Below, in pieces: positions 5,567 through 20,355 of a stretch of 64,000 nucleotides of DNA. The stretch lies in sequence record NZ_CP110904.1; one strand, given 5' to 3'. The position numbers and the translations under genes are program-made. The notes beneath the pieces were generated by a model, which had not been told where the DNA came from, did no database searches, and worked only from the letters and a program-made list of their open reading frames with translations. This DNA comes from a plasmid. Position 1 is the first letter of the stretch; the number at the start of each line of letters is the position of its first letter.

Positions 5567-5939
5567 TGACTCTATGTTGTATAAGAATATTGAGCTTTGT
5601 ATTATCGCTCCCACATTTCAAGTAACTGACAAAAGTTACTTTGCGCATTAAGCGCGGATTCAGCCGTGAAAAGCGGCCAGCTTACTTAAGCTGCAAGGCA
5701 CCACCGGCAAAATGTCACCTTTGTCGCTGGTGCCTTTCCTATGCCCGTAAAAAGGCAAACCGAATTTACCAAATCGTAACTAATTTAGCTCTTGATTGAG
5801 CTATTTTCGTTGCGTACTTCTAATGCCAGAAAGTATAAATCAGGCGGTTCATAGCTTACGGGAGATGAATGACAGGCTTTGCCTTTGTGTTGGAATATTC
5901 CATTATTCCTTCCTTCTTACTATATATAGGTGACCCCAA

Positions 5940-6815
5940 ATGTCTAAAAGCAAAGCACGCAGTAAAGCCCTTCTTCTGGCCTTCGCCGATCTGATTCCGG
6001 ATATGGACAAGGCAGTTAACAAGAAGTTATTGGAATCTCTGATTATTTACTCAGGGCATGATAATGACCTTATTGTTATTTTGAATGAAGACGGACCAAC
6101 TATAATTGAACTGAACTCTTTAAAATCGGTTTCTATGCTGGCCCAAAAGCTTTCAGCTTTTTCAACTTATTATCATGTAGAAATGCAGCAAATTCATGTC
6201 AATCCAATTGACTTTGAGAAGGCTTATAAGCTACTCAAAGAAGCACCTGCAATTCCCATGTTTAAAACTTTAGCTGAACTGGATAAGTTTTTAAATGAAG
6301 AGTTTGAAAAGTATGGGTTGAACACATTCCTTGATGTGGATGACCTAGATTATTCACTCGATAAATCCAGAGAGTTAAAAAATGATCAGTTGATTGCCTG
6401 GGTTTCTGAAATTATTGTGAAGCGCGATAAATTAGCATTGCGTAATCGCTTTAATGAAGTGACAAAGGCACATTATGAAACTGTAGATGCATTGTATGCA
6501 GCCGTCCGTCCCTTAATGAAAGAATTAGGTTTTCCTGATGAACTCATGCTACATACCTTTAGTGAATTGAGCGTTTTCGATTCCAAAGGCTGGGACCATG
6601 CTATCAAATCTAAAATTGAATTTCTCACAAAACGAGAAGCGCAATATTTAGATGACAAAATGAAGGCAGAAAAACGGCAGTTAACAATTGATGAACTTTT
6701 GACTCAAGCCAATAGCGCTAAAACAGCTAAAGAACCAAGACCTTTTGGTCAGACGTTTTGTTTTGCTGTTCTTGGCATGATGTCATTGATGTTCATTGTA
6801 AATAAATTTATTTAA
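5940..6815 (+). CDS. Hypothetical protein (291 aa) with a C-terminal hydrophobic helix
   Basis: Long ORF with consistent codon usage. It is the first gene of the co-directional train, and a 370-bp AT-rich leader lies upstream. The C-terminus FCFAVLGMMSLMFIVNKFI is hydrophobic. Confidence 0.55.
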   Translation: MSKSKARSKALLLAFADLIPDMDKAVNKKLLESLIIYSGHDNDLIVILNEDGPTIIELNSLKSVSMLAQKLSAFSTYYHVEMQQIHVNPIDFEKAYKLLKEAPAIPMFKTLAELDKFLNEEFEKYGLNTFLDVDDLDYSLDKSRELKNDQLIAWVSEIIVKRDKLALRNRFNEVTKAHYETVDALYAAVRPLMKELGFPDELMLHTFSELSVFDSKGWDHAIKSKIEFLTKREAQYLDDKMKAEKRQLTIDELLTQANSAKTAKEPRPFGQTFCFAVLGMMSLMFIVNKFI

Positions 6816-6873
6816 TCCTGTTAAGGGGGAACCCTGACAGGGCTTCTCTTTGATTAAAATGAGGAGAGAAGAA

Positions 6874-7251
6874 ATGTCACATCTTGAATATGTTAATGAA
6901 GTTAAAGTGTCCGGGATAGTTATCAGTGCAATGGAGAAAGAAATGACTGACGGTAACGTTGGGTTATTAATAAAGCTCAAAAACAGAATGAAGACTGAAA
7001 TTAATGGTGAAATCGCTGAGAGAGAATTTTCTATTCAAATCAAAGTGTCACCAGAAATGTATTCAGGCTGTTTCACTGGTATAAATCAAGGTGATGAGTT
7101 AATGGTCTCCGGTTATCTTGTTGTGGATATTGTCACGTTGGAAGGGAGAGAGCACCCTCTTGACTACATGAGAGTCGTTGCAACAAGTAAGTTAGCTCAC
7201 ATACCTAAACCCCCCAAGGGTTTTGGGCAAAGTAGCTTTAGACAGATCTGA
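6874..7251 (+). CDS. Hypothetical protein (125 aa)
   Basis: SD GAGGAGAG precedes the ATG at 6874. The ORF track offers 6850. Confidence 0.5.
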   Translation: MSHLEYVNEVKVSGIVISAMEKEMTDGNVGLLIKLKNRMKTEINGEIAEREFSIQIKVSPEMYSGCFTGINQGDELMVSGYLVVDIVTLEGREHPLDYMRVVATSKLAHIPKPPKGFGQSSFRQI

Positions 7252-7262
7252 CATTTAAACCA

Positions 7263-7310
7263 CCCTAAAGGGGAGAAATCCCTTCATGGGAGATCTCCCT
7301 TTGGAGGCCC
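7263..7310 (+). repeat. Structured intergenic repeat, copy (CCCTAAAGGGG / GGGAGAAATCCC / CCCTTCATGGG / GGGAGATCTCCC)
   Basis: Overlapping CCC-N4-GGG mini-palindromes immediately 5' of the ATG at 7312. Confidence 0.7.
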
Positions 7311-7311
7311 C

Positions 7312-8298
7312 ATGAAACAAAAAATTAGCTCGACATCATTTATTGGTAAACAAATGGATTTTTTCTCTATATTCGATTTTGAAGAAGAGGAAAATGAAAT
7401 AATACCCATAGTTGAGTCTCCGCTTGAATATATAAATAATGCAATAGCCCAAAAGCAAAGCATGCAATCAGAAGAAAAACATTCTGTCCCGGAACTGGTG
7501 CCTCATGTGTCGGATGATGTTGCATTGCTAGGTCATTGTTCCAAATTACTCAACAATCAAATTCTGCATGGAATTAGTTTTGCTTCTGAAACTGATTATC
7601 TCTTCACTTTAGAAGAATACAATGCAGAATTAGGTGGTCTGGTTATCGACTGGGCTCCTGAAGATGTATATCAGTTATACGTCGTCGCAATGGAAGAGTC
7701 GTTGGAAAACGTTAAATATCTTGTCTTTACAAAATCACTCTATACAACTGATGAATTCGGAAATATCAAAGTGAATCCGCTTCTTGAAGCAGAAACACGT
7801 TGGTATATGTCGCAGTCATTTGAGCTTACATGTGCCACTCATGGTATAGATGCTATTGAGTTTAGGTCAGAGCTTAAAAAAAGCTTGTATGAATACACGC
7901 ACAGTTTTGAAAGTGAAAATGTTAAATTATCTCAATATCATCAGGATAAAGAGATTATTTTGCATGATTGTAAAGAAGATATGGGATGGGATATCTTTTT
8001 CGACCGTGACTATTTATTGGCAGAAAATAAACTGGCAGTAAAATGGACTGATCGGGATATAATGGATGTCTATTCTAAAGCATTTAAATCAACAATTAAT
8101 TTGTTTGAAAAACTTGTCGTAAATAACAAGTTAACATTAAGGGATACATCAGGTTGGGTTATCGTAAACCCTACATTTGAGCGCCAGTTCGAATGGATTG
8201 AATCTGAAGTATTCGAAATTGTAGGGACTCATCTTGGTTACAACGTTGATGCTATCAGAAAACAGATGGTTACAGCGTGTAAGATGACCTTCAACTAA
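7312..8298 (+). CDS. Hypothetical protein (328 aa) with an acidic N-terminus
   Basis: ORF directly downstream of structured repeat copy 7263-7310. No recognisable domain. Confidence 0.55.
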   Translation: MKQKISSTSFIGKQMDFFSIFDFEEEENEIIPIVESPLEYINNAIAQKQSMQSEEKHSVPELVPHVSDDVALLGHCSKLLNNQILHGISFASETDYLFTLEEYNAELGGLVIDWAPEDVYQLYVVAMEESLENVKYLVFTKSLYTTDEFGNIKVNPLLEAETRWYMSQSFELTCATHGIDAIEFRSELKKSLYEYTHSFESENVKLSQYHQDKEIILHDCKEDMGWDIFFDRDYLLAENKLAVKWTDRDIMDVYSKAFKSTINLFEKLVVNNKLTLRDTSGWVIVNPTFERQFEWIESEVFEIVGTHLGYNVDAIRKQMVTACKMTFN

Positions 8299-8357
8299 TA
8301 TGCCACTGGCAAACATCTGCCAGCGGGCGGTGTTTGCATTTTACCGGAGTTTTAAAA

Positions 8358-9410
8358 ATGACTAACGCCGCAACTATATTAGAAACCGAAAATTCATTAC
8401 TGGAAGAAAATATTGGTAATCTGTTACCCGCAAATGTTATATCTACAAAAGCATATGCGAATAAGGAACAATATTACCTGGTTAAGGCCAAAGATTTGTT
8501 TGGTATTCCTGAAATGTCCGAGGATATGATAGTTCCAGTATTTAAACGTTTATCTCCACATCGTGCAAACCTGAATAAGGATTATATACCGAATGCTCGT
8601 ATACTTGAGCAAGTAGTACAATTGCTCGTAAGTAACGATATAGATTTAAGTGTATGCCTGAAAGGGGAGTCTGGTTCTGGTAAGACTGAAATGGCAATGT
8701 ACATTAGCCATATGCTGAATTGGCCGCTAACCATAAAGCAAATCAACAGTAATATTCGTGCTGATGAACTTGAAGGTGAGCGTAGTCTCATTAACGGAAA
8801 CACCAGTTTTGTGCCCAGCGAGCTTGTAACGGCGTTTCAGGAAGGCCACCTCATTCTTCTGGATGAAGTGGACAAGATTGACCCTGATACCGCCGCGAAG
8901 CTGCATATGCCTATAGAGCGTAAGCCCTGGTCACTAGCCGCCAACGGTGGCGAAGTGGTTAATGCCAATAAGTTTACGCGGTTTATGGGTACAGCAAACA
9001 CAAACATGAGTGGGGGATCTCGTAAGTTCGTTTCATCACAGCGGCAGGATGCAGCGTTTATTAAACGCTTCCTGATTGTGGAGATGGAAAGGCCTTCAGA
9101 GGTTGCATTAACCAACGTTTTGCTTAAACGCTACAATAGCCTGCCTATGCTGGTAATTGAAAAATTCGTTTCGGTAGCCGTTGCAGTAAACAACATAGGA
9201 ACTGAAGACAGTGTAATGGATATTCGTCAGCTTGTGGCATGGGTTGGAACGTCGATGACGTTAAAGACCATGTCCTTACTGGATACGTTTAAAATTGCTT
9301 TTGCGTCGGCTCTGCCTGCACATGCCAGTGGTATGGTGCTGGAAGCCATCGATTTAAAACTCGGTGACGATAAGAACCGTACAATGGAGTATTACACTGC
9401 AAAAAAGTAG
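8358..9410 (+). CDS. MoxR/CbbQ/CobS-like AAA+ ATPase
   Basis: Walker A GESGSGKTEMAMYISHML, Walker B ILLDEVDKIDPDTAAKLH, and a sensor-like FIKRFLIVEMERP. SD GGAG precedes the ATG at 8358 (track 8334). Confidence 0.8.
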   Translation: MTNAATILETENSLLEENIGNLLPANVISTKAYANKEQYYLVKAKDLFGIPEMSEDMIVPVFKRLSPHRANLNKDYIPNARILEQVVQLLVSNDIDLSVCLKGESGSGKTEMAMYISHMLNWPLTIKQINSNIRADELEGERSLINGNTSFVPSELVTAFQEGHLILLDEVDKIDPDTAAKLHMPIERKPWSLAANGGEVVNANKFTRFMGTANTNMSGGSRKFVSSQRQDAAFIKRFLIVEMERPSEVALTNVLLKRYNSLPMLVIEKFVSVAVAVNNIGTEDSVMDIRQLVAWVGTSMTLKTMSLLDTFKIAFASALPAHASGMVLEAIDLKLGDDKNRTMEYYTAKK

Positions 9411-9448
9411 TTATAGATGGGACGAGTTATCAGAAGGCTGAATGCCTT

Positions 9449-9718
9449 GTGACAGACTTTGCTCATCTTTCGTTTTACGGTTTTTTGAGTGCAGACGGGG
9501 ATGAAACTTTCGCGATTGCACAGGAAGGAAATCAATATATAGGTCTTAAGCAGCACAATAATGATTTTTCATTTATTTGTTATCAAGATTGTGACAAAGA
9601 TATGGAAGCCATGATTAAGGGCCTTGAATCAAAAGGATTCATGTATCAAGGAAGTATTCAATCGACGTCTGTCGAGAGTGAATTTCCTGGAATTCTTTTA
9701 ACAACACTTGAGAAGTAA
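9449..9718 (+). CDS. Small hypothetical protein (89 aa, GTG start)
   Basis: ORF only. Weak SD. Confidence 0.35.
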   Translation: MTDFAHLSFYGFLSADGDETFAIAQEGNQYIGLKQHNNDFSFICYQDCDKDMEAMIKGLESKGFMYQGSIQSTSVESEFPGILLTTLEK

Positions 9719-9727
9719 TAATCTTAA

Positions 9728-9766
9728 CCCTATCGGGAAATCTTTCCCGACAGGGAGGTTTTCCCA
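9728..9766 (+). repeat. Structured intergenic repeat, copy (CCCTATCGGG-AAATCTTTCCCGACAGGGAGG-TTTTCCC)
   Basis: 5' CCC-N4-GGG hairpin, then an outer stem GGGAAA/TTTCCC enclosing a second CCC-N4-GGG. Confidence 0.7.
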
Positions 9767-9789
9767 TTTTTTTAATCTGGAGAAAACCT

Positions 9790-10917
9790 ATGACTTTCAA
9801 TACTTCTAAACTTAATAAAGTTTCCGCTAAGCAAATCTGTGATAACTTTGTAAAAGCACATCCTGATTTGTTGGAAGGTGCTGTTATAACAAAAATCGAA
9901 ATCAGTGGTTGTCAGGGCTCTCGGCGTACCGATAAAATCGAACTGTCCTATGGCGGCGATGATATAACGGACCAGAAGAGCGTGTCTAAAAGTGAAGTTC
10001 GCTGGATAGACATAAAGGCACTGAGTTTCAAAAGCACTATCACTAGTCGAATTTCAACACTCTGTTCACGGTTGTGTATCCGCTATAGCAATATGTGGAT
10101 TTTGCCTGTCGAAAGAATGGAGGAGTTTCTGGAAGAGGCACAAGAAATTGAACGTGAGTTTCAAGCCGGTATCCAGAATGTGGTTGATAACTATGACACT
10201 CATATTCAGGCTGAGAAAGATCGCAGTCCGTTGATGTCAGATTTAATCGACCAGTTGAAATTAACGAAAGATGATTTTATTAAATCATTCCGGTTTAATC
10301 TGGCGCATTTCATTCCGTTTTCACCGATTAGTGTGGAGGGGGATGAAACACAGGACTTTTATCAGGAACAACTGATAATCGATTTGGCCGATGAAGCTAT
10401 GAAGGTTTATGCAAAAATCAGTAAAAATGATAATTTGCGTTCCAGCACGATTGACCGATTAAAACAGATGCAAGATAAAATCATTAGCTTTATGTTCATT
10501 CATAAAGAGGCGGTTGTTCTTGCAGAAGCTATCAAGCACGTCATGAATAATTTACCCAAAGGCGCCATTTCTTCTCCCCGTGATGTTGCGGTGTTAAAGC
10601 AATGGTTCTATTTCATGAGTGATGCGTCAATGCTGAAACGTATTATTTCTGGTGAGCAGAAAGTAACAGATTGGCTGGATTCCATTACCCGGTCATTCAA
10701 TATTGATTCACAGGATAATACGGCTAACTCTCAGAATGCTTTTGAGGATGATGTTTTTTCTTCAGCAAATGTGTTCAGAGAAGATCCGCTTGAAGAAGTT
10801 GAGAAAAACGCAGTAACTGCACCTTTGTCTGCTGTTGTCCCTGAAGAAGATGTTTCCCTTCAGGCCAGTGGTAGTAATAGTGCTTTTAACAGCGAACTCG
10901 AACTGAACGGCTGGTGA
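9790..10917 (+). CDS. Hypothetical protein (375 aa)
   Basis: SD GGAGAAAACC before the ATG. Structured repeat copy upstream (9728-9766). Confidence 0.55.
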   Translation: MTFNTSKLNKVSAKQICDNFVKAHPDLLEGAVITKIEISGCQGSRRTDKIELSYGGDDITDQKSVSKSEVRWIDIKALSFKSTITSRISTLCSRLCIRYSNMWILPVERMEEFLEEAQEIEREFQAGIQNVVDNYDTHIQAEKDRSPLMSDLIDQLKLTKDDFIKSFRFNLAHFIPFSPISVEGDETQDFYQEQLIIDLADEAMKVYAKISKNDNLRSSTIDRLKQMQDKIISFMFIHKEAVVLAEAIKHVMNNLPKGAISSPRDVAVLKQWFYFMSDASMLKRIISGEQKVTDWLDSITRSFNIDSQDNTANSQNAFEDDVFSSANVFREDPLEEVEKNAVTAPLSAVVPEEDVSLQASGSNSAFNSELELNGW

Positions 10918-10936
10918 TTTAGTCTTGTAAAAATAA

Positions 10937-10972
10937 CCCCAGATGGGTACTTCACCATCTGGGTGAGTACCC
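10937..10972 (+). repeat. Structured intergenic repeat, copy (CCCCAGATGGG-TACTTCACCATCTGGGTGA-GTACCC)
   Basis: Outer stem GGGTAC/GTACCC. Inner CCATCTGGG. Confidence 0.7.
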
Positions 10973-10994
10973 TTTATTAATTAAAGGTACTCAA

Positions 10995-13007
10995 ATGAAA
11001 TTTGATTTGAAATCTTCACCCCGCCATATTCAACGCCTGACGAATATAGCCAGCGTGATAAGCGGTATAAGTGGTCTTAATGTTGTAATAGACAATAAGG
11101 TACATACACCTTATTTCAACAGCGAAAAGAACGTTTGTGTATTACCTAATGGTGATTATAGCGATGAGAAATTCGTCAAGCTAATTGAAGGGTTTATATG
11201 TCATGAAGCTGGACACGGTCGCTATACAGAACATGAAGTATACCGTGAAGCTTTTGTTGGGGAACTGATTAATGCAGATGGCTTCATCAGTATAGATGAT
11301 AAGCTGAACGCTGAATTTCAAACCCTTAAACAAAAGAAAATCGCATATGCCCGGGCTTACCGTCTACATGGACTTATTAATCTCTTTGATGATGTCCAGA
11401 TGGAAGAGAAAACGGGTATTGACTATCAGGAGGCAAAAAAGCGCCTCGCGGTAAGTTATGCCTTGATGGTTGAAGCTGGGCGAATGACGGTTGATGTTTC
11501 TTCAAGCCCTCAAAACCCTGTTCAGTTTATTGAAATGTTCCTGCTTAATACATTGCGGGTTAACGTTCTCCAGCAAGAAGGGCATAAAGAAACGCTTGAT
11601 CCATTTTTCGATTATGCAAAGAAAATCCTTGAGCCTGTAATTTTAGAAGTTGATGAGATTATTCATCAGGCTCTAAGTTGCAAAAGTACGCAAAATTGCG
11701 ATTCTCTGGCGCGTAAAACCTTGGCTCTTTTAGAGCGTTTACGGGATGAAGCCAAAGAGAAACAGCAAGAAGAGGATCAGAATAAAGACCCGCAAAACGA
11801 CACAGACAATTCATCTGGCTCTGAGAATGAACCTGATTCCGAAACCAATGGTGACAACCAGGGTGAAGGGGATGGAGATTCCGAAGAGCAAGACGATGAT
11901 GCTGGTAATGGTAAAGCACCTATGGAAGATAATGAGCCGTCAGAGCAATCTAAAGGGGATGAAGAAAGTGCTGAGAGCGGTAACGGTGAACCTGATGGAG
12001 AGCCCGAAACCGATGAATCGGCTAACCCTGACTCGTATGATGCTGACGGAACTCCTTCCCAAATCGACAGTTCCAATGGAAATCCTTCCGATGGGGAAAG
12101 TAACTTTTCTCCTGAGCAGTGGAGTATCCTTGCCAAATTGCTGGATGATTTTCTTAACAGCGATGAGGAAAGTGAAGATTTTCATGAGGCTCTTGCAAAT
12201 GAAATCTCCGTAATTGCTGCCAGTGTGTCGGATGAGGTTAAAGCTGAATTTGGTGCAAATGAGTGGGATCTTCCAGATTTGCTTATTGATCTGAATGTCT
12301 ACAATGAAGCATTAAATATCAGTCAGACTCTTGGGGCAGACTTATCTGTTTTACAGCAGGTAAAAATGCGTGGTCAATTTAAAACCCGTGATAGAGGCTT
12401 GTCATTCGACATTAATCGATTGATCCAGTCTCCGATGGGTGTGAGGGATGTATTCCGGTCGCAAAGCGAATCTAAAAACCGGGGCCACGTCGGCTTGGTT
12501 ATTGTTCGTGATATTTCAGGTTCTATGATTCTGGATCACCGTTATATCCACGCAATTAAGACTGACCTTGCATTAACTTTGGCGATTGAAGCTAATTCAA
12601 AAATGCACGTTGCTAATGTGATTTATCCGTTTGTCGACAAAGACTTTGAATTTATCAAAACGTTTGATGAAAACGCGGAAGAGACGCTTTCAAAATTTTC
12701 ACTCGGCTGTAAAGGGAATAATACCCCAACGGGTTCCGCCTTAATGGCTGCTGTAGAATTGTTACTTGAAAGCCAGTTTGACAGGAAAATTGTTTTCCTT
12801 ATTACTGATGGTTATCCGACAGAGTCTGATTACACCATTAGTGATGTTCTTACGGTAGCTGAAAGTAACGGTATTGAAATCGCTGGTGTAGGCATTAAAA
12901 CTGATGAGTTAATTGGTTTTGATGAGGGCACCTTCGTAAATGTTGATGATATTTCTTTACTGCCGAATGTGGTCAGTAAATTAGTACATCAAATTCTATC
13001 TAATTAA
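10995..13007 (+). CDS. vWA-domain protein with a central acidic low-complexity linker (CobT-like partner of the AAA ATPase)
   Basis: C-terminal MIDAS-type motif VGLVIVRDISGSMILD plus FLITDGYPTE. Residues ~250-360 are a D/E/S/N/G-rich tract (EEDQNKDPQNDTDNSSGSENEPDSETNGDNQGEGDGDSEEQDDDAGNG...). Confidence 0.8.
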   Translation: MKFDLKSSPRHIQRLTNIASVISGISGLNVVIDNKVHTPYFNSEKNVCVLPNGDYSDEKFVKLIEGFICHEAGHGRYTEHEVYREAFVGELINADGFISIDDKLNAEFQTLKQKKIAYARAYRLHGLINLFDDVQMEEKTGIDYQEAKKRLAVSYALMVEAGRMTVDVSSSPQNPVQFIEMFLLNTLRVNVLQQEGHKETLDPFFDYAKKILEPVILEVDEIIHQALSCKSTQNCDSLARKTLALLERLRDEAKEKQQEEDQNKDPQNDTDNSSGSENEPDSETNGDNQGEGDGDSEEQDDDAGNGKAPMEDNEPSEQSKGDEESAESGNGEPDGEPETDESANPDSYDADGTPSQIDSSNGNPSDGESNFSPEQWSILAKLLDDFLNSDEESEDFHEALANEISVIAASVSDEVKAEFGANEWDLPDLLIDLNVYNEALNISQTLGADLSVLQQVKMRGQFKTRDRGLSFDINRLIQSPMGVRDVFRSQSESKNRGHVGLVIVRDISGSMILDHRYIHAIKTDLALTLAIEANSKMHVANVIYPFVDKDFEFIKTFDENAEETLSKFSLGCKGNNTPTGSALMAAVELLLESQFDRKIVFLITDGYPTESDYTISDVLTVAESNGIEIAGVGIKTDELIGFDEGTFVNVDDISLLPNVVSKLVHQILSN

Positions 13008-13013
13008 CTCTAC

Positions 13014-13057
13014 CCAATTGGGGCAAAATGACGCCCGGTTGGGTCGTTTTGCTCCCT
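13014..13057 (+). repeat. Structured intergenic repeat, copy (CCCAATTGGGG-CAAAATGACGCCCGGTTGGGTCGTTTTG-CTCCC)
   Basis: Outer stem GGGGCAAAA/TTTTGCTCCC. Inner CCCGGTTGGG. Confidence 0.65.
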
Positions 13058-13077
13058 GAAGGATTAAGGAGCAATAT

Positions 13078-13299
13078 ATGACTCAGATAAAGACTTACCG
13101 TGTCGAGTATGAAAAAGTCGGGATGATGCATCGTGTCCGTATTTTTGGTCGCATGGGTGAAGTTGTCAAAAGTGAATTGCCAAAAGAAGTAATTCTCCGG
13201 GATGTATCTATACCGGAGGGTAATGTAAAAATGGCAACATCAATGGTTGATGGTTTTATCCAGCGTCTTGAAAATAATGGCTTCAAGTCTGAAGCGTAA
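13078..13299 (+). CDS. Small hypothetical protein (73 aa)
   Basis: Strong SD AAGGAGCAATAT before the ATG. Confidence 0.5.
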   Translation: MTQIKTYRVEYEKVGMMHRVRIFGRMGEVVKSELPKEVILRDVSIPEGNVKMATSMVDGFIQRLENNGFKSEA

Positions 13300-13306
13300 T
13301 TGTTAA

Positions 13307-13391
13307 GGGCCATTATGGCCCTTATTCTTAGATTCTGCGTTGTGGGTTTCTCCCTGTTTTCTGCATCGCAGAGGGCATTGAGAAACCCACA
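13307..13391 (+). repeat. Variant structured element upstream of the primase-like gene
   Basis: GGGCCAT-T-ATGGCCC at 13307-13321, then a 12-bp stem TGTGGGTTTCTC (13341-52) / GAGAAACCCACA (13380-91) whose loop holds CTGCATCGCAG. Confidence 0.6.
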
Positions 13392-13413
13392 ATGCCAGAT
13401 AAGAGAGAACAAA

Positions 13414-14646
13414 ATGACTTATGCATCACCGGCTGTTAAGCGTACACCACATGAAGTATCTGAGCACTTTATTAAAATGGTTCACGCTCGTGTTGCGGAA
13501 GCCTCTGGCTGGCGCTATGTATTCGATAGAATACCGGCATTTAAAGATGCTTGTGATAAAGCACCTAGCCAGGTTCCTTGCCCCTTCACCGGGGACGGGA
13601 AATCAAAGTTCCGTTTCCGAAAAAAAGACCTCTATACCGGTTGTGCTATTCACAATGATTTCCCTGTGAATGCATTTTGTGACGGTATTGATGTGCTGGC
13701 AGAGTATTACAAGTTGAGCAAAACCCAGACTTGTAAGAAGATCTTGACTGATTTCTTTGGTATGGATCTGTACGCTCCGTTAACTGATGCGGATCTCGAA
13801 AGTGAACGGCGTTATAAATCAACAGTTCGTGCAACCGAAACGCTTGATAGCGATGAAGTTGAAAAACGGCTGCGTAAACTTGAAGTGTTATATCACTATA
13901 CAGGTGAAATCAAGCCAGGGAGTCCTGTGGGCATGTATCTCCGAAATCGTGGTCTTAAACGAATTCTGAGTAATCTGCCTAAGGATCTTGGTCTGAACAA
14001 CCGACTTTACTATATGGATAAGTCACTAGAGAAACCGTCAACTTACCCGGGAATGATCGCAATTTATCGTGATACACGGGGACGTCCTCTGACAATCCAT
14101 AGAACGTTCGTAGAGAAAAATGGTGATAAGGCTCGGGTAGAGAATCCGAAACTGATGATGAAACCGCCTGCCGATATGACCGGCGGCTCAATTCAGCTGT
14201 ACGACCCACACTACAACTCAGGTACCCGTACCTGGACGTTAGGTGTGGCTGAAGGCATAGAAAACGCGCTGTCAGTAACTGAAGCGACTTCAACACCGTG
14301 TTGGGCTGCGAGCTCTGCCTGGTGTCTTGAAAACGTTGAAGTGCCGGATAGTCTACTGCCTCCTCCGGATGTGAAAGAAATACAGTTTTACGTCTGGGCG
14401 GATAAGGATGTTGTGAATTCAAGAGGCGCTTGCCCGGGTATGGAGTCAGCAATACGACTTCAGGCCCGAATGGAAGAGTTTTTTGCAAAGCGATATCCCA
14501 CTTCAGAGCTGACAATTAAAGTCTTTGAACCAGATTTCGATATTCCTGAAGGGACGAAAGGAATCGACTGGAACGAAGTATTGAAATTAACAGGACCTGA
14601 TGGCTTCCCAGTAAAATGGGCTCCTGAATGTCTTGCTCAGCTTTAA
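13414..14646 (+). CDS. Primase-like protein: CHC2-type zinc finger plus Toprim domain (ORF-track start 13300 rejected)
   Basis: Zn-finger-like CPFTGDGKSKFRFRKKDLYTGCAIHN, then Toprim-like TWTLGVAEGIENAL ... FYVWADKD. SD AGAGAG precedes the ATG at 13414. The upstream 113 nt of the track ORF is a nested hairpin, not coding-like. Confidence 0.7.
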   Translation: MTYASPAVKRTPHEVSEHFIKMVHARVAEASGWRYVFDRIPAFKDACDKAPSQVPCPFTGDGKSKFRFRKKDLYTGCAIHNDFPVNAFCDGIDVLAEYYKLSKTQTCKKILTDFFGMDLYAPLTDADLESERRYKSTVRATETLDSDEVEKRLRKLEVLYHYTGEIKPGSPVGMYLRNRGLKRILSNLPKDLGLNNRLYYMDKSLEKPSTYPGMIAIYRDTRGRPLTIHRTFVEKNGDKARVENPKLMMKPPADMTGGSIQLYDPHYNSGTRTWTLGVAEGIENALSVTEATSTPCWAASSAWCLENVEVPDSLLPPPDVKEIQFYVWADKDVVNSRGACPGMESAIRLQARMEEFFAKRYPTSELTIKVFEPDFDIPEGTKGIDWNEVLKLTGPDGFPVKWAPECLAQL

Positions 14647-14650
14647 ACCC

Positions 14651-14700
14651 GATAACTCCCCCGCCTTTTTAGGTCGGGGGGGGTTATCTCTTTAGTGTTT
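14651..14700 (+). terminator. Rho-independent terminator after the primase-like gene
   Basis: GATAACTCCCCC...GGGGGGGTTATC forms a 12-bp stem with one mismatch, followed by TCTTTAGTGTTTAATTT. Confidence 0.5.
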
Positions 14701-14858
14701 AATTTCATAAATACTAAACAGATAATTAGATTTCCTTCGTGAAAATCACCTGTTATTCAGGTTTTTTTTACGGCTGAGATGCTTGCTCAGTTAAATAAAT
14801 GTGCGGTACATCTGGCTACGGTCGGTTGTATGACGTGGTATATCCATATAACTCAAAA

Positions 14859-14887
14859 CCCCTGACGGGAGTATTACCGTTAGGGTG
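14859..14887 (+). repeat. Partial structured repeat (CCCCTGACGGGAGTATTACCGTTAGGGTG) in the gap before the 14920 gene
   Basis: CCC-TGAC-GGG core plus a second CC..GGG element. Confidence 0.45.
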
Positions 14888-14919
14888 ATGCTCATCGTTT
14901 AATATAAGAGAGCATTGTT

Positions 14920-15444
14920 ATGAAAACTGAAAATCAAGACTTATTTAATAAGTTTGCTGCTGTGATTTCATCTCGTATCGTTGAGCAACCATCATCATGC
15001 TATTATCTTCATGATAGTGAAGTTGACCTTACGATTTTAAAACACAGCATAATAGATAAGGACAAAAACCTGTTGTATGTAATTCGCCCTTCAGGTACAT
15101 GTTTGTTACGCTGTGATAAATATTTTTTTCCGAATTACTATCTTACTTGTCGTGGAGATTATAAAGCATTCATTTATGTGCATTTTAATCTTGCTACAGG
15201 AAAAGCGGAAGATATCACGTGGCAACAAGCTTTAGAAGTTTTGTCCAAACCGGGAAGGCCCCCATTGAGAGGTTCTCTTGGAAGATTTGATTATTTAAAA
15301 CTTGTGGTTGATGATCTTCGTACCCGTGGTTATGCCGATTTTCTACCGGCATATAATCTGGATGGACTTCGTCATTTTGCAGTAAAGGATGAGCGACCAT
15401 CTCTTGTCAGTTATATCGACAATGTCATGGCTCTTTGCGCATAA
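14920..15444 (+). CDS. Hypothetical protein (174 aa)
   Basis: ORF after a ~220-bp gap that carries a partial structured repeat at 14859-14887. Confidence 0.5.
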   Translation: MKTENQDLFNKFAAVISSRIVEQPSSCYYLHDSEVDLTILKHSIIDKDKNLLYVIRPSGTCLLRCDKYFFPNYYLTCRGDYKAFIYVHFNLATGKAEDITWQQALEVLSKPGRPPLRGSLGRFDYLKLVVDDLRTRGYADFLPAYNLDGLRHFAVKDERPSLVSYIDNVMALCA

Positions 15445-15467
15445 ACATATCACATATTTTAACTACA

Positions 15468-15499
15468 TCCCTGATGGCCAATCCCATCGGGGGGCCCTC
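15468..15499 (+). repeat. Structured intergenic repeat, copy (CCCTGATGGCCAATCCCATCGGGGGGCCC)
   Basis: Tandem CCC-N4-GGG cores. Confidence 0.6.
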
Positions 15500-15520
15500 A
15501 GCATTTAACCTGGAGGCCTT

Positions 15521-16399
15521 ATGAAATTAGCTACAGATCTTGTCAATGCAGTTCTGATAAAGGATGGTGTTGTACCGGTTTCCATTACTGAGATGCCTGT
15601 ACAGTCTCTTGTAAATCCTTTGACACAAGTGCATCTCAGCCTGTACCTGAAAACAACGCATTTATCGCGGTTCGTCCCTGACTATGTCGAGACTCTGAAA
15701 GATTGTCCGGTATCGTATGATATCGGCCTTGAACTTCAGCAGTGTATCAGCAGTGCTGAATTGCTCTGCGAAGACATGGAATCGCTTGAATTTATCTCTG
15801 TATGGATAGAACTCTATACGTGTAATTCAAAGCAACAACGGTTTGAGGAAAGTAACTTTTCTCTTCGTTCCGAAGATATCGAGCTGGCTAAGATGCTAGC
15901 TTGTTCCCATGATCTCTTGATTAGCCAGGCTGCTTGTTTCTGGCTTTTATATTTTGATGACTTCATGAGATATGTGCGTAATAGACTCTGTACTTTACTC
16001 AGAGAAGTTTTAATACTGATTGCCGGACTGCGGAATGCATTCTTGCACCGTAATGAAGATCAGTTAATTAAGAGAGTGAAGTACGGGAATGAAATGCTGG
16101 AGGTAACTCTTAAAGCTATTGCACTATGTTCAATGGACCGGTATCTGAAATCATTTACCTCTTTACGAACAGAAGCGGCAGCTTCGGGTTTTATCAAATG
16201 TGTTAAGTCTTATATCAGTACAGGGTGGAGACATGGTTATATAGTCTGTCACTATTATCGAAATGGACAGTCTCTTGGTAAGTCATTACCACTTTTTATA
16301 AGTGAGACGTCTGAATACAGTATACAGAAACGAGTAAATCGTCTTATATCTTCCACGATATCAGGGCGAAATAAAGATTTAGGTCTTTCTGATTTCTGA
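15521..16399 (+). CDS. Hypothetical protein (292 aa); N-terminus resembles those of the next two genes
   Basis: N-terminus MKLATDLVNAVLIKDG compares with MKIIEKIINAFLMS (16467) and MKAIYKLIEAMLVK (17480). Confidence 0.55.
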   Translation: MKLATDLVNAVLIKDGVVPVSITEMPVQSLVNPLTQVHLSLYLKTTHLSRFVPDYVETLKDCPVSYDIGLELQQCISSAELLCEDMESLEFISVWIELYTCNSKQQRFEESNFSLRSEDIELAKMLACSHDLLISQAACFWLLYFDDFMRYVRNRLCTLLREVLILIAGLRNAFLHRNEDQLIKRVKYGNEMLEVTLKAIALCSMDRYLKSFTSLRTEAAASGFIKCVKSYISTGWRHGYIVCHYYRNGQSLGKSLPLFISETSEYSIQKRVNRLISSTISGRNKDLGLSDF

Positions 16400-16408
16400 T
16401 TAACACTA

Positions 16409-16445
16409 CCCATCTGGGGATTACTCCCCTGATGGGCGTAATCCC
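16409..16445 (+). repeat. Structured intergenic repeat, copy (CCCATCTGGGGATTAC-TCCCCTGATGGGC-GTAATCCC)
   Basis: Outer 8-bp stem GGGATTAC/GTAATCCC. Inner CCCCTGATGGG. Confidence 0.75.
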
Positions 16446-16466
16446 TTTTTATAACGAGAGGATTAC

Positions 16467-17402
16467 ATGAAAATTATCGAGAAAATCATTAATGCATTTC
16501 TGATGTCACGCAATCACGCTGTGAAGGTCAGCAATGTTATCTGCTTAACTGGTTGTGACGGTAAATTTACTGGTATACGTTGTGACGCCGATGTTTCATT
16601 TGATTTTCTTCATTCGTATGCTAACGCATACAGTTCAATATTTTTAGATATCCCGTTCCCTGGGTTCGAAGACCAGAACATTACGGATTGTGTTAAACGT
16701 CAGTTAGATGTAGTGAAAAATAAACAGAATCGGTCTTTCTTTATTGACCATATTAGATTCCCGGTTACTGTCAAGGAAGGATTCACTCTACAGCGCGGTG
16801 GTAGTTGCGACGTGACTGATAGTGAATATAACAAGCAACGATTGCTGCATTTAACTCGACATGGACGTTTTGGTGAAGACTATCTCACGTACAAAGAAGG
16901 ACTGAGTCCCTTCTTTTCATTTGTGAATGTAGAATTACATGAAACTATGAAGGAAGGTATTCGTTTAGCACTTGATGTTTTAAATAAGATAACAACTGAC
17001 CAACCTGACCGTCTTATAAAGGACTTTAAATATCATGACTGTTACAATAGTTATAATGTTCAAATATTTTGTAAGGGGTTGCCAGTTGATATTCTGGAAA
17101 CGATGATCGCACCTGACTTTTTGTCATCCGACATGTCTGGTAGTCGTCAGATCATCAAAAATGCACGCCGCTATCTTAAAGGCTTTGCCCACAGTAATCG
17201 TGTTTACATGAAGTACGGTTGGCGCTTAGCGGATATCGACACGTCTGATTATGCTAAAGTCATGTCAGATAAAGAAATGCATGCCAGAGATGATCTTAAA
17301 ATGTTTTGCGGTGTCTTTGTTAAAGAGTGCTTCGCATCCGGAAAAGATGAATACGAAGCCTACCTTCAAGAAAGACAACACGCTATTCGTTACGGGTATT
17401 AA
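16467..17402 (+). CDS. Hypothetical protein (311 aa), paralog-family member
   Basis: Same N-terminal pattern as above. Structured repeat copy at 16409-16445. Confidence 0.55.
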   Translation: MKIIEKIINAFLMSRNHAVKVSNVICLTGCDGKFTGIRCDADVSFDFLHSYANAYSSIFLDIPFPGFEDQNITDCVKRQLDVVKNKQNRSFFIDHIRFPVTVKEGFTLQRGGSCDVTDSEYNKQRLLHLTRHGRFGEDYLTYKEGLSPFFSFVNVELHETMKEGIRLALDVLNKITTDQPDRLIKDFKYHDCYNSYNVQIFCKGLPVDILETMIAPDFLSSDMSGSRQIIKNARRYLKGFAHSNRVYMKYGWRLADIDTSDYAKVMSDKEMHARDDLKMFCGVFVKECFASGKDEYEAYLQERQHAIRYGY

Positions 17403-17425
17403 AACTTATTTTCAACTTATCTAAT

Positions 17426-17459
17426 CCCTGAGGGAACTCTTCCCTTGGGGAGAATTCCC
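17426..17459 (+). repeat. Structured intergenic repeat, copy (CCCTGAGGGAA-CTCTTCCCTTGGGGAGA-ATTCCC)
   Basis: Outer stem GGGAA/TTCCC. Inner CCCTTGGGG. Confidence 0.7.
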
Positions 17460-17479
17460 TCTTAACCGAGGGCAATAAA

Positions 17480-18213
17480 ATGAAAGCTATTTATAAATTA
17501 ATTGAAGCGATGCTGGTGAAGATGGGTTTTGAAGGTGCTGCGATCCAAAGTGTCAATCTGGAAACCGGAGTCATTCAGTGTCAGCAGCTCACCTGCGTCT
17601 TGTTGATGTTGAGCCAGACTGGCTGAATGAAGGTGTGAACCGTGAAAAACTGGACTATGTCTATTATCGTTCCAGCAATGCAGACAAGGATTTAATCCTT
17701 GGTATGGTTGAAAACGGTCACAATTTCATCAGCCATCTTCATGGCCAGTTACGGTCACGCTTATCTCAGGTTCTTCCGCTTATTTTCGCAGTTACAGAAA
17801 AGGTTGCGGAAAGTTCAGTTCCACAAGTGTTAACCAGGTTCTTCAGTGTTGACCATCAAATCAATACTCAGATAGTAGTTGAACCGGTACCCGTTTCAGT
17901 TGCAGACCAGATAATTTCTGCCAACTGGGATGTGAGTAGTATTTCTGGGGCTGACAAGTTCCTGAACCATGTTAATCGTTACCTGTCGGGTAGGGTGATG
18001 AAGCGGCGCATTTACGCTGTTATTGAATCTTGCAACGATGGCCCTTTAACTCTCGACGCGAATCTAGGTTGCTTTACTTCACCTCTTCTCGTCACTGAGT
18101 ACAAAATGGTTCAATCGCATTCTTCATCGCTGTACAGAAAGGCTATAAATAACTCGCTTAAGCAAATCAATTCGTATGCTCCAGAGCATTCGGATGATCT
18201 GCTTTACATGTAA
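17480..18213 (+). pseudogene. Paralog-family gene with a -1 frameshift near nt 17596 (authentic pseudogene, sequencing indel or recoding)
   Basis: ATG 17480 follows repeat copy 17426-17459 and encodes MKAIYKLIEAMLVK... in frame 2, stopping at 17626. Frame 1 carries on from ~17596 as LRLVDVEPDWL to 18213. Both halves align with the 16467 protein (LTGCDGKFTGIRCDADVSFDFL vs LETGVIQCQQLTC / VDVEPDWL). Confidence 0.45.
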
Positions 18214-18224
18214 TTAATAAATAA

Positions 18225-18262
18225 CCCTAAGGGAAGCTCAATCCCTTTAGGGGATGCTTCCT
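18225..18262 (+). repeat. Structured intergenic repeat, copy (CCCTAAGGGAAGC-TCAATCCCTTTAGGGGAT-GCTTCC)
   Basis: Outer stem GGAAGC/GCTTCC. Inner CCCTTTAGGGG. Confidence 0.7.
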
Positions 18263-18286
18263 TTATTCTTTCAAGAGGAAGTAGAT

Positions 18287-19222
18287 ATGTTTAATGAAAA
18301 CGATGATATAAATTTTGTTAGCGCCATGCTTAAAAAACAACTTGGTCTGACAGTAATTCAACAGGATATTAAACTGTTTGATAAGTCTAATTTCTTTGAA
18401 CAACTCTCATTCAAAGCAGAAGTGGCGACTGATGATTTGTTATTCTATCTTGATTCATATATCGAAGAGTTGATAAAACATAAAGCGCCGTATTCTGAAA
18501 CCGAAGTTCTCCGGAATAAAATCAAATACCTTTTTAAAGTATATGAAAAGTCTGGGTTTCAGAAAATAACAATTCGTGGTTATCATAATGCGCATAGCAC
18601 TATGAAATTTTTCGATATAGCAACATCAATATTGGCGGCCTCAGAATCGTTGCCTGAATATGATGAATTTCAGAAAGGTCTCAGAAAGGAAATTTATCAG
18701 AATAGAATGAGTGTTGACGGGAAAGTTCTTATTGCCCGGTATGCACTGAAGCAATTTTTCCATTCTGATTTTGGCGACTTTATCTATGAGTTTGAGAAAA
18801 AAATAACAGAGTGTCTATTTAATTCTCTTCAGGTTATCAAGTCTGTTAAAAATTCATTTCATAGTTTAGGTCAATATCAATATCACCGTCGTGTAAATCA
18901 TGAACTGATGTTGCATCTTGAGCTGAACACTGATGAATACCCGGCTTGCATGCCTGATCTTTACATTGGTTTCAATGAGTCTGAAGGCACGACGGGGGCG
19001 TATTGCGATGATGAAAAACTCATTCGTCTTTATACCTGCGTAAGTTCCGGACACGATGTGCCGGTTATGATGAACGTTCGTTTCACTGGCAGTGATGGGA
19101 GTGTTAAGTGTGAATCCTCGCACGGAACCTTCTCTTCTGTGGGACCTTGTGGCCGAGTACAAATCTGTGACAGAGCAGCGTTGATCCATGAAGCGATTGA
19201 AGAGTTTCGGGACGGTGTTTAA
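18287..19222 (+). CDS. Hypothetical protein (311 aa), tandem paralog A
   Basis: SD GAGGAAGT before the ATG at 18287. Core DGKVLIARYALKQFFHSDF...YQYHRRVNHELMLHLELNTDEY is paralogous to the 19399 gene. Confidence 0.65.
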   Translation: MFNENDDINFVSAMLKKQLGLTVIQQDIKLFDKSNFFEQLSFKAEVATDDLLFYLDSYIEELIKHKAPYSETEVLRNKIKYLFKVYEKSGFQKITIRGYHNAHSTMKFFDIATSILAASESLPEYDEFQKGLRKEIYQNRMSVDGKVLIARYALKQFFHSDFGDFIYEFEKKITECLFNSLQVIKSVKNSFHSLGQYQYHRRVNHELMLHLELNTDEYPACMPDLYIGFNESEGTTGAYCDDEKLIRLYTCVSSGHDVPVMMNVRFTGSDGSVKCESSHGTFSSVGPCGRVQICDRAALIHEAIEEFRDGV

Positions 19223-19336
19223 CCGGTCCTCATTCTCACCTCATCGTAAAAAGTAACTTTGTTCGACTAAATGATTGCGTTCACTTTCCTGTTTAACTGG
19301 CAGGATAGAATGATTTAGAAAAACATATTTTTATCC

Positions 19337-19372
19337 ACCCACTGGGGAAGTTGCTCCCCTATGGGGCACTTC
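19337..19372 (+). repeat. Structured intergenic repeat, copy (CCCACTGGGGAAGT-TGCTCCCCTATGGGGC-ACTTCC)
   Basis: Outer stem GGAAGT/ACTTCC. Inner CCCCTATGGGG. Confidence 0.7.
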
Positions 19373-19398
19373 CTTTCAATTTTCCTGAGGAAGTGAAA

Positions 19399-20355
19399 AT
19401 GACTAATTATACTGATAATCAAAACTACGTTCGTGCAGTACTGGCAGACATTGGCATTGATTTTGATGAGACAGAGATTCATATCAATGTCTCTCACTGC
19501 CAGGGCGACGAGGTTTCTTTTTCTTGCAGTATATCAGCCAGTGAATTAAGACAGTCTGTGGACCATTATGCGGAAACGCTTAATGCTACTCAACTGGATG
19601 GACTGGATGCTAATACCCTCAAGAAGCGCCTGGTTTACTTCCTTGAGGTCTTCGACCAAGTTTCCGGTCAGTATCTGGATATCTCTGGTAAACACTACGC
19701 GACTAGCCGCTTTGAATACGATGATGTCTGTTGTGATATCCTAAGTCTTTCTGCGGATAGCACACAACCTGGTGGCTATGATCGTGAAGAATACAAAAAA
19801 CTGATGGAAGTTGATGGACAGGTTTTAATCGCCCGTTTTGCACTGGAACAATTCTGGAATACGCATTTTATTGGGCTTATCAACTATGTATCAGATGAAA
19901 TAACATCCGGTCTTCATGATGCTTATCGCACTTTCAGTGATATAAGCATGGCCGCTTATACATTTAGTGAGTATTCATATTCACGTCGAATTACCGACGA
20001 ACTGAGTCTGCATATTTCACTTCAAGAGGACGATTTCGACGATCAATTAACCGATTGTTATATGGATGAAACAACGCTGCCGTCCGGCAAAGTAGTTTTA
20101 CGTCGTAATAATGAATCGATTATTGATATTTATGAAAGTTATGCTGCAAAATCTTACTTTCATATGGTTGCTCATGTTCGAGTCCTTGATCAAGATGGTG
20201 AAGTCGTTAATGAACTTTACCAAGGGGTGAATGTATCTGAATTGACTGGTGGCCGGGTTAAAATCCATGACCGTCAGGATCTAATTTATGAAGTATTCTC
20301 CACATTACGTAAACTCATCCCCGCTACAGAGGTTAAAGTCTCCGTTGCGGCATGA
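19399..20355 (+). CDS. Hypothetical protein (318 aa), tandem paralog B
   Basis: Same SD GAGGAAGT. Core DGQVLIARFALEQFWNTHF...YSYSRRITDELSLHISLQEDDF aligns with paralog A. Confidence 0.65.
   Translation: MTNYTDNQNYVRAVLADIGIDFDETEIHINVSHCQGDEVSFSCSISASELRQSVDHYAETLNATQLDGLDANTLKKRLVYFLEVFDQVSGQYLDISGKHYATSRFEYDDVCCDILSLSADSTQPGGYDREEYKKLMEVDGQVLIARFALEQFWNTHFIGLINYVSDEITSGLHDAYRTFSDISMAAYTFSEYSYSRRITDELSLHISLQEDDFDDQLTDCYMDETTLPSGKVVLRRNNESIIDIYESYAAKSYFHMVAHVRVLDQDGEVVNELYQGVNVSELTGGRVKIHDRQDLIYEVFSTLRKLIPATEVKVSVAA

Follow-up and report, generated by a model that had tools for sequence, protein, structure and literature searches.

A covarying three-helix RNA module predicted to sequester Shine-Dalgarno sequences along a gene train of an IncHI1B plasmid

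The plasmid stretch of 64,000 nucleotides analysed here (record NZ_CP110904.1; hereafter the window) is 100% identical to the Citrobacter freundii plasmid pCF_324-2 (CP078021.1; 258.8 kb, IncHI1B, MOBH, MPF_F) and carries a train of co-oriented genes downstream of the transfer helicase gene trhI. The intergenic gaps of this train harbour a repeat family of 11 canonical copies and one variant (8303–8360), each on the + strand and each with its 3′ end at the start codon of the following gene. The module is a cis-acting element of the sense mRNA, and very probably a covarying switch of three helices that sequesters the Shine-Dalgarno (SD) sequence. For the whole explanation developed below, which joins this three-helix lock to an opener, most plausibly the ribosome terminating on the upstream cistron, and to a relay coupling of successive cistrons, we see about an even chance of being right.

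Anatomy, covariation and extent of the module

Five segments, A, B, A′, B′ and SD, follow one another in each module, which extends from about −68/−55 relative to the start codon through the SD sequence, 55–65 nt in all. In the ground state predicted by RNAfold, A and B together pair with A′ to form a first hairpin (HP1), of which the two CCC-N4-GGG boxes are the arms. The fourth segment, B′, is an anti-Shine-Dalgarno sequence; its pairing with the following gene's SD and spacer gives a second hairpin (HP2), in which the ribosome-binding site is hidden. Comparison of orthologous gaps shows that B′ is complementary to B as well as to the SD region. B, which comprises the 3′ part of the HP1 5′ arm and the HP1 loop, is a copy of the SD region, so that an alternative B:B′ helix is possible; in that fold the SD is single-stranded and A′ is folded on itself as a 3-bp mini-hairpin. 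The copy at 16409 illustrates this threefold relation (B, GGGATTAC; B′, GTAATCCC; SD region, AGGATTACatg), while the complementarity between boxes is exemplified at 10938, where CCCAGATGG pairs with CCATCTGGG and the middle positions change together between lineages.

The tandem arrangement is the rule. Across lineages, RNAfold predicts almost everywhere an HP1 of 9–13 bp followed 0–2 nt later by HP2, and 83 gap sequences from ten lineages could be parsed as tandem hairpins. In the window, tandem HP1-HP2 is the minimum-energy fold of 11 of the 12 copies, including the 8303 variant, with z-scores from −2.8 to −6.4 for the ten canonical tandem copies and of −1.4 for the variant. The original prediction had instead described a nested hairpin located 25–45 nt upstream of the start codon, with CCC-N4-GGG as independent mini-palindromes. 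The outer stems that it quoted are all present as written and the outer B:B′ stem is real, but as an alternative helix, since 7263 is the only window copy whose minimum-energy fold is predicted to be nested. Rather than independent palindromes, the boxes are, in the ground state, the two arms of HP1, whose N4 stretches covary. Similarly, the 3′ strand of the outer stem does pair with B, but its pairing with the downstream SD region had been missed, and the placement was too narrow for a module that runs through the SD itself. An H-type pseudoknot combining A:A′ and B:B′ was also considered and discarded, because its geometry is forbidden by connecting loops of 0–1 nt over stems of 6–11 bp.

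Orthologous gaps were compared between IncHI1B (the window), IncHI1A (L002, 89% identity) and IncHI2 (L004, 75% identity), and seven further loci were added through DUF3150 homologues of 45–73% protein identity, giving ten lineages; an eighth further locus (L009, 72%), whose assembly looks frameshifted, was used in the covariance-model search only. All three helices carry covariation support across these ten diverged IncHI lineages. A first indication is the specificity of the pairings, as the median duplex energy of cognate segments is lower (more stable) than that of non-cognate ones for A:A′ (−15.6 versus −7.2 kcal/mol), B:B′ (−10.4 versus −5.6 kcal/mol; p=7e-24, orthologous copies not being independent samples) and B′:SD (−7.9 versus −3.6 kcal/mol). 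Compensatory double changes were found in orthologous alignments at 18 of 101 pairs in HP1, 13 of 75 in HP2 and 16 of 82 in B:B′.

Covariation was further tested on the Infernal alignment of 69 matches from ten loci, against 500 shuffles and slid controls. For HP1 and HP2 together, 78% of the cells are paired versus 62% in shuffles and the covariation score is 0.42 versus 0.17, neither value being reached in any of the 500 shuffles, and the slid controls do not exceed 0.15. The cells changed on both sides lie above all 500 shuffles and the number of pair types above every one of them, with up to six pair types at the middle pairs of HP1; the number of pairs with a double change (14) was equalled or exceeded in 266 of the 500 shuffles. 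For B:B′, a helix that played no part in fitting the alignment, 71% of the cells are paired versus 62% and the score is 0.337 versus 0.203 (0/500 shuffles as high), while the pair-count and pair-type measures are not above shuffles. The support thus comes from cell-based measures, which sequence relatedness can inflate. Variation is not spread evenly over HP1: the orientation of its outer C-G and inner G-C pairs is never flipped in 65 distinct copies, and its middle pairs vary freely. With all three helices covarying, the earlier claim of selection on base pairing rather than on a linear motif is upheld.

Within this plasmid, the family is confined to the gene train. A strict pattern (CCC-N3-5-GGG-N3-16-CC-N3-6-GGG) scanned across the window was found at nine + strand loci (7263, 9728, 10937, 13013, 14859, 16409, 17426, 18225 and 19338), compared with 0.59 ± 0.78 (maximum 5) in 200 dinucleotide-preserving shuffles of the window, and all nine fall within 19% of it (7263–19366). 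A covariance model built from 51 copies and run with Infernal on the whole window with filters off gave 11 + strand matches at E<0.05, all inside 6814–19401; among them, the copies at 6814 and 7260 were recovered though no seed sequence came from their gaps. The 8303 variant, which keeps the A-B-A′-B′ layout without the CCC/GGG boxes, was missed by the model. The prediction of at least 11 repeats between 6816 and 19398, one in almost every gap, is therefore borne out by 11 canonical copies plus the variant, occupying 12 of the 14 gaps of the block. The two gaps devoid of the module are 9411–9448 and 13300–13413; the gap upstream of the first train gene (5567–5939) lacks it as well, leaving this gene (start at 5940) without a lock.

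Element specificity, which had also been proposed, was found on the whole 258.8-kb plasmid: the 11 matches of the model all lie within 6814–19401, the best match outside the block in the window has E=0.16 (48042–48122) and none below E=0.2 occurs in the remaining 195 kb. At 48042–48122, an HP1-like hairpin (ACCCGCAGACG/CGTCTGCGGGT) precedes an anti-SD pairing, CUUUCUC:GAGAGAG, and a 444-aa gene starts immediately after, at 48120; this site has a marginal score of 15 bits and lacks B, and may be either a remote relative of the module or a chance match. In agreement with the failure of the original prediction to match the repeat to REP (repetitive extragenic palindromic) or other named elements, none of the 4227 families of Rfam 15 matches the window at gathering thresholds, and the four matches at E≤1 over 5500–20800 are at chance level and overlap no copy; no dispersal of the REP type is seen on this plasmid, and no mixed orientation among the 69 copies of the ten loci. 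No prior description of the module was found in the searchable literature, including a transcriptome study of R27 (PMC7366339), older subscription papers on R27/R478 lying outside this search.

The copies of the window, all on the + strand, are as follows.

Copy g1, 6816..6876, before the 125-aa gene: HP1 6816–6842, directly after the TAA stop; B′ about 6843–6851; SD arm 6863–6871; start 6874. Tandem fold of −24.8 kcal/mol, z −4.6; covariance-model E=0.04, unseeded; conserved in 10 lineages.
Copy g2, 7263..7314, before the 328-aa gene: box 1 7263–7272; B 7268–7277; box 2 7280–7290; B′ 7294–7302; SD 7303–7307; start 7312. Covariance-model E=0.001, unseeded; the minimum-energy fold is nested B:B′ here, as in 6/10 lineages, and tandem in the rest.
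Copy g3 (variant), 8303..8360, before the AAA_5 ATPase gene: A CCACTGGCA; A′ TGCCAGCGG; B GGCAAACA; B′ TGTTTGC; start 8358. A-B-A′-B′ order in all lineages; weaker fold, z −1.4; SD partly paired (probability of being unpaired 0.5–0.9).
Copy g5, 9728..9792, before the DUF3150 gene: HP1 9728–9755; B′ 9758–9766; SD arm 9778–9787; start 9790. Covariance-model score 53.3 bits; −29.4 kcal/mol, z −5.5; B′/SD covariation from IncHI1B (GGTTTTCCC with GAAAACC) to IncHI2 (GGGTTTCCCC with GAAACCC).
Copy g6, 10937..10997, before the vWA gene: HP1 10938–10963; B′ 10966–10976; SD arm 10982–10991; start 10995. 52.5 bits; −30.5 kcal/mol, z −6.4; compensatory A:A′ change from AGAT/ATCT to AAAT/ATTT in lineage L008.
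Copy g7, 13013..13080, before the 73-aa gene: HP1 about 13012–13046; B′ 13050–13059; SD arm 13064–13073; start 13078. 41.9 bits; −27.6 kcal/mol, z −3.2; HP1 with U.G pairs (CCCAATTGGG with CCCGGTTGGG).
Copy g9, 14859..14922, before the 174-aa gene: HP1 14860–14885; B′ 14888–14896; SD arm 14908–14915; start 14920; in a 273-nt gap, 3′ of a terminator-like hairpin, with no ORF (open reading frame) ending nearby. 34.1 bits; −26.0 kcal/mol, z −5.9; compensatory change from CCCTGACGG/CCGTTAGGG to CCATAACGG/CCGTTATGG in IncHI2 and others.
Copy g10, 15469..15523, before the 292-aa gene: HP1 15469–15492; B′ 15493–15501; SD arm 15510–15518; start 15521. 36 bits; −26.5 kcal/mol, z −3.0.
Copy g11, 16409..16469, before a 311-aa gene: HP1 16409–16436; B GGGGATTAC 16417–16425; B′ GTAATCCC 16439–16446; SD arm GGATTAC 16458–16464; start 16467. 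48.8 bits; −30.1 kcal/mol, z −6.4; three segments changed at once from the window to IncHI2 (GATTAC/GTAATC/GATTAC to GATCAC/GTGATC/GATCAC).
Copy g12, 17426..17483, before a frameshifted paralog: HP1 17425–17451; B′ about 17454–17461; SD arm 17468–17475; start 17481. 38 bits; −26.7 kcal/mol, z −4.4.
Copy g13, 18225..18289, before a 311-aa gene: HP1 18225–18252; B′ 18255–18264; SD arm 18274–18283; start 18287. 48.9 bits; −24.7 kcal/mol, z −2.8; in RNA truncated before the SD, nested B:B′ at −18.0 versus HP1 at −14.1 kcal/mol.
Copy g14, 19338..19401, before the 318-aa gene, in a 176-nt gap: HP1 19338–19365; B′ 19367–19375; SD arm 19387–19395; start 19399. 45.5 bits; −28.8 kcal/mol, z −3.7.

Predicted closure of the ribosome-binding sites and possible openers

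The 78-nt region from −75 to +3 has a median folding energy of −26.9 kcal/mol in train genes versus −12.7 kcal/mol in 27 other genes of the plasmid (p=4e-7), and the median probability that the SD is unpaired is 0.18 in the train versus 0.41 in other plasmid genes. The SDs of the train are nevertheless strong, with a median SD:anti-SD duplex energy of −6.1 kcal/mol versus −4.2 kcal/mol in control genes. Freeing the SD arm would cost 8.3 kcal/mol on average, behind a findpath barrier with a mean of 17 kcal/mol, and the best SD-free fold is the B:B′ conformer in 51% of the copies. In RNA that stops short of the SD, many copies have nearly the same energy with HP1 as with the nested fold. From these energies, the module looks like a balanced switch that is firmly shut once HP2 has formed, with no self-opening expected on the time scale of an mRNA. 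A closed state favoured by ∼8 kcal/mol behind a barrier of ∼17 kcal/mol would thus act as a lock that needs an active opener.

What this opener may be is suggested by masking simulations. Masking all of the upstream sequence together with the outer half of the HP1 5′ arm raises the mean probability of an unpaired SD from 0.19 to 0.40, with values above 0.5 in 39% of 83 copies, whereas masks placed on the HP1 3′ arm (0.22) or on HP1 in its entirety (0.19) leave the SD closed in silico. Since only masking of the 5′ arm opens the SD, the design would respond to events on the 5′ side of the module. Between the upstream stop codon and HP1, the median spacing is 9 nt, and 71% of 73 copies show no more than 13 nt. 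As for HP2, it never overlaps the upstream ORF or the footprint of a terminating ribosome, and lies wholly in the gap, 35–45 nt past the stop codon.

We therefore considered a trigger by ribosome relay. The ribosome that ends translation of the upstream cistron would melt the outer 5′ arm of HP1; this melting would tip the balance towards B:B′ and briefly expose the SD, so that translation of each cistron would be licensed by that of the previous one, in a relay coupling over gaps of 55–80 nt, and RNAs without translation from the first gene of the operon would stay silent. Modelled as it is from predicted folds, this trigger has, in our estimate, somewhat less than an even chance of being the actual one. 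More tentative still is the picture of a domino chain, in which the first cistron alone would be open and the later ones would be unlocked as the decoy B pulls the anti-SD off the SD. If this picture were correct, the train would possess a modular, protein-free RNA relay that keeps spurious internal or read-through transcripts of AT-rich mobile DNA untranslated.

Several observations weigh against this proposal. A mask restricted to the ribosome footprint (stop codon + 10 nt) opened the SD in few copies, and even the favourable mask opens only about 40% of them. In 29% of the copies, HP1 is separated from the stop codon by more than 13 nt, and by as much as 45 nt. The copies at 14859 and 19338 lie in gaps of 273 and 176 nt in which no conserved ORF ends nearby; a terminating ribosome cannot therefore open them, barring unrecognised leader ORFs or 5′ processing. 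Nearest-neighbour energies err by a few kcal/mol. Finally, the excess of G.U over A.C cells on a noisy alignment is small (102 versus 87), which makes the wobble argument for RNA weak when taken alone.

Leader ORFs were also considered. Inside the element, a short reading frame that opens with ATG and stops at or beside the main ATG is present in four window copies but in only 10 of 83 copies across lineages, as by chance, and is not conserved between them. Upstream of the copy at 14859, a candidate conserved leader ORF (ATGACATGG...) differs in frame and stop position between lineages; this stretch is probably a promoter or a structural motif.

The first rival to this ribosome-driven opening is a regulon under a trans-acting factor, that is, an RNA-binding protein, a helicase or a small RNA, encoded by the plasmid or its host, that would recognise ACCC...GGG...CCC...GGG and open or clamp all locks together, placing the whole train under a common post-transcriptional control. 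It would account for the copies at 14859 and 19338, which have no upstream ORF as a source of ribosomes, and for the fact that certain HP1 pairs (C-G outside, G-C inside) keep a fixed orientation, and most train proteins are without a recognisable family and could include such a factor. However, the alternative fold already accounts for this orientation: in it, B imitates the SD with its GGG, and the mini-hairpin of A′ requires the sequence CCC-N4-GGG. Moreover, the 3′-arm and whole-HP1 masks described above leave the SD closed, searches of the train proteins against Pfam, PHROGs and PDB sequences revealed no RNA-binding domain, and a single small RNA could not pair with N4 and B stretches that are specific to each copy. 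We regard such a factor as unlikely.

Somewhat less likely still is a static damper or stabiliser, in which HP2 would set a low and fixed level of initiation, HP1 would insulate and protect RNA ends, and B:B′ would not be used. Closure of the ground state by ∼8 kcal/mol behind ∼17 kcal/mol, the lack of a simple mask that opens every copy, and the strong SDs (−6.1 versus −4.2 kcal/mol), which fit a design of strong site plus damping, all speak for it. Yet B:B′ is copy-specific and covarying, including at nucleotides of the HP1 loop that are unpaired in the closed state; it is also stronger than B′:SD, and in most lineages copy g2 has its minimum-energy fold in the nested conformer. Translation reportedly changes about 10-fold per 1.4 kcal/mol, according to de Smit and van Duin, and a penalty of 8–12 kcal/mol would by this relation leave conserved genes almost untranslatable.

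Transcription attenuation, with B:B′ and a U-rich stretch as intrinsic terminator and HP1 as antiterminator, so that the module would adjust the share of transcription reaching the next gene, appears very unlikely. Long runs of U do follow B′ directly in some copies (e.g. 9767–9773, and up to 9 U in IncHI relatives), and HP1 and the nested fold are near iso-energetic when B′ has just been made, but a run of at least five U is present in only 10 of 52 scored copies and the U content beside B′ (0.53) does not differ significantly from that at the far end of the loop (0.48). A terminator scan flags a full site with B:B′ and U-tract only at g5 (9735–9764), its other matches within the element being inner mini-hairpins, and the pairing of B′ with the SD would be left unexplained.

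A role at the level of DNA, either as dyad operators of an element-encoded regulator or as hairpins for priming or promoters on single-stranded DNA, is highly improbable. It draws on the nearly palindromic nature of HP1 (antisense score of about 16–20 bits) and on the presence of a toprim primase-like gene in the train. Against this, each of the 69 copies from the ten loci is on the coding strand with its 3′ end at a start codon, and for 50 of them the more stable fold is that of the sense strand (means of −29.2 kcal/mol for sense versus −26.6 kcal/mol for antisense). This uniform polarity, the better sense folding and the inclusion of the SD in one of the helices favour a function in the mRNA over a DNA operator or single-stranded DNA signal. 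In addition, complementarity runs from the N4 of box 1 to that of box 2 and not within each box, box spacing varies, promoter-like hexamers are not in excess (32 found versus 39.4 expected), and the elements measure 35–45 nt versus about 300 nt for the Frpo-type single-strand promoters of plasmid leading regions, long hairpins that rebuild −35 and −10 hexamers in single-stranded DNA. Among the functions that the original prediction had left side by side, per-gene translational control in the mRNA is thus favoured, whereas the single-stranded DNA and operator roles are disfavoured by strand, start-codon ends, sense folding and variable parts that differ between copies. Least probable of all is an RNA thermometer, in which HP2 would melt in the physiological range and tie expression to the temperature biology of IncHI plasmids, since, although the SD is held in a hairpin, IncHI conjugation is thermoregulated and many non-tra genes of R27 are more expressed at 37 °C (PMC7366339), the predicted probability of an unpaired SD is flat from 15 to 50 °C in every window copy, the stems of HP2 are long and well paired, no thermometer family of Rfam matches, and HP1 and B would be superfluous.

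The gene train, its relatives and its neighbourhood

The train begins with three orphan genes, followed by genes for an AAA_5 ATPase, a small ORF, a DUF3150 protein, a vWA protein, a 73-aa product and a primase-like DUF7146/Toprim_3 protein; after a terminator-like hairpin and the 273-nt gap, its second half consists of six orphan genes and ends with twin terminators near 20.4 kb. According to the record annotation, the block adjoins Tra2 and is more than 100 kb away from Tra1-type transfer genes (trhH, trhR, traD). Searches of the train proteins against Pfam, PHROGs and PDB sequences returned only AAA_5, DUF3150, VWA, DUF7146 and Toprim_3. The 125-aa protein (6874–7251) has an OB-fold-like look by eye and no match in the same three collections. 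A strong GC hairpin with a weak T-tract (14650–14691) lies 3′ of the toprim gene, and twin terminator-like hairpins with T-runs (20358–20424) close the train; these hairpins suggest two or three transcription units.

The last two train genes (18287–19222 and 19399–20355) are paralogous to each other (27% identity, E=4e-35); between the genes at 15521–16399 and 16467–17402 no similarity is detectable, and none of these four genes matches a Pfam or PHROGs family. The gene that follows copy g12 (17481–18213) is frameshifted here, with stop codons in its translation, and is unannotated in CP078021.1; its counterpart is intact, with 306 aa, in IncHI1A and IncHI2 relatives, and the g12 module upstream of it is still intact in the window.

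A nearly invariant block (about 5830–5885 and about 14775–14840), TAAAT..GCGGT.CAT..GCTnACGG......ATGACnnGG, is common to the two long gaps with which the halves of the train begin; it is conserved in all lineages and probably marks paralogous promoter or regulatory regions. An 11-mer palindrome, AAAGTNACTTT, occurs seven times in the window versus 0.09 expected (4952, 5632, 12097, 15849, 19250, 24091 and 34793). Two of its copies, conserved there in other IncHI lineages, lie in long gaps, before the first train gene (5632) and before the last (19250), and the palindrome may be a binding site for a regulator. The gap before the toprim primase-like gene (13300–13413) has a different structure, with a GC hairpin (13306–13325) that covaries between lineages and a second, long and highly conserved hairpin (13340–13396), and the SD of the toprim gene is predicted to be open.

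The block is found in about 1400 plasmids of PLSDB, from 99% down to about 75% DNA identity, in Escherichia, Salmonella, Enterobacter, Klebsiella and Citrobacter hosts, and its synteny and elements are conserved in all lineages that we fetched. Beyond IncHI-type backbones, a genome scan for relatives contributed no more than IncHI2-like loci and a single locus of 57% identity, and a second protein search returned nothing more distant than the relative at 45% identity. IncHI plasmids rank among the main carriers of multidrug resistance in Salmonella, E. coli, Enterobacter, Klebsiella and Citrobacter. The gene train is a conserved module of their backbone, and the predicted gating of nearly all its genes after transcription would mean that its expression is tightly policed. 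The repeated element gives a handle for studying the role of this block and would in itself be a natural, compact module of ∼60 nt, employed 12 times over, each copy having its own "address". If the relay were true, it would extend what is known of how information travels from cistron to cistron through ribosomes and provide a ready-made part for ordered or stoichiometric translation in synthetic operons.

Comparison with known systems

The closest parallels to the proposed relay are cases of translational coupling by RNA unfolding, such as rpmI-rplT, genes VII-IX of phage f1, MS2 coat-lysis and atpHA (reviewed in PMC12548453). As in the module, the downstream ribosome-binding site is silenced by structure and relieved by upstream translation, the latter being what we propose here, and the coupling acts over tens of nucleotides (spacing of +52 nt for rpmI-rplT; PMC12548453). 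In those systems, however, the inhibitory helix lies partly inside the upstream ORF and is opened directly by the ribosome, whereas HP2 is wholly in the gap and the signal would need a strand exchange from HP1 to B:B′. The module also differs in being repeated before about 12 consecutive genes.

Other systems share the logic of an anti-SD with competing partners, which here are B and the SD, both pairings being copy-specific and covarying. Translational attenuation leaders of the ermC or cat type contain four or five segments with mutually exclusive pairings, in which the anti-SD is held by the SD or by an upstream competitor and the position of the ribosome decides. In contrast to these leaders, the module has no conserved leader peptide (mini-ORFs in 10/83 copies) and no drug-dependent stalling signal, and its pairings are interleaved (A:A′, B:B′) rather than sequential (1:2, 2:3, 3:4). 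The expression platforms of riboswitches follow the same three-strand logic of SD, anti-SD and anti-anti-SD, but the module has no ligand-binding aptamer, is 55–65 nt as a whole and matches no Rfam family. The hok mRNA of plasmid R1 (fbi, tac and ucb elements) is another plasmid mRNA in an inert fold that needs remodelling to free a ribosome-binding site. It is a single locus, activated by slow trimming of its 3′ end and controlled by an antisense RNA, whereas the train has 12 local modules and no sign of antisense control.

Finally, two families of intergenic structures resemble the module by their location. REP elements and bacterial interspersed mosaic elements (BIME) are also short, GC-rich and imperfect palindromes in the intergenic gaps of operons. 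REP elements are dispersed genome-wide in both orientations and mostly lie 3′ of genes, whereas the module is restricted to one gene train and one polarity, is customised to the next SD and is found nowhere else in the 258.8-kb plasmid. The RNase III sites between the early genes of phage T7 likewise represent one structured element per gap of a long transcription unit. They are single hairpins of about 50–60 nt with an internal loop and without a helix competing for the SD, while the stems of the module, at 9–13 bp, are judged short for RNase III. To conclude, the principle of SD, anti-SD and anti-anti-SD was already known, and what is unusual is its use in a reusable module with three covarying and competing helices, placed before about 12 consecutive genes.

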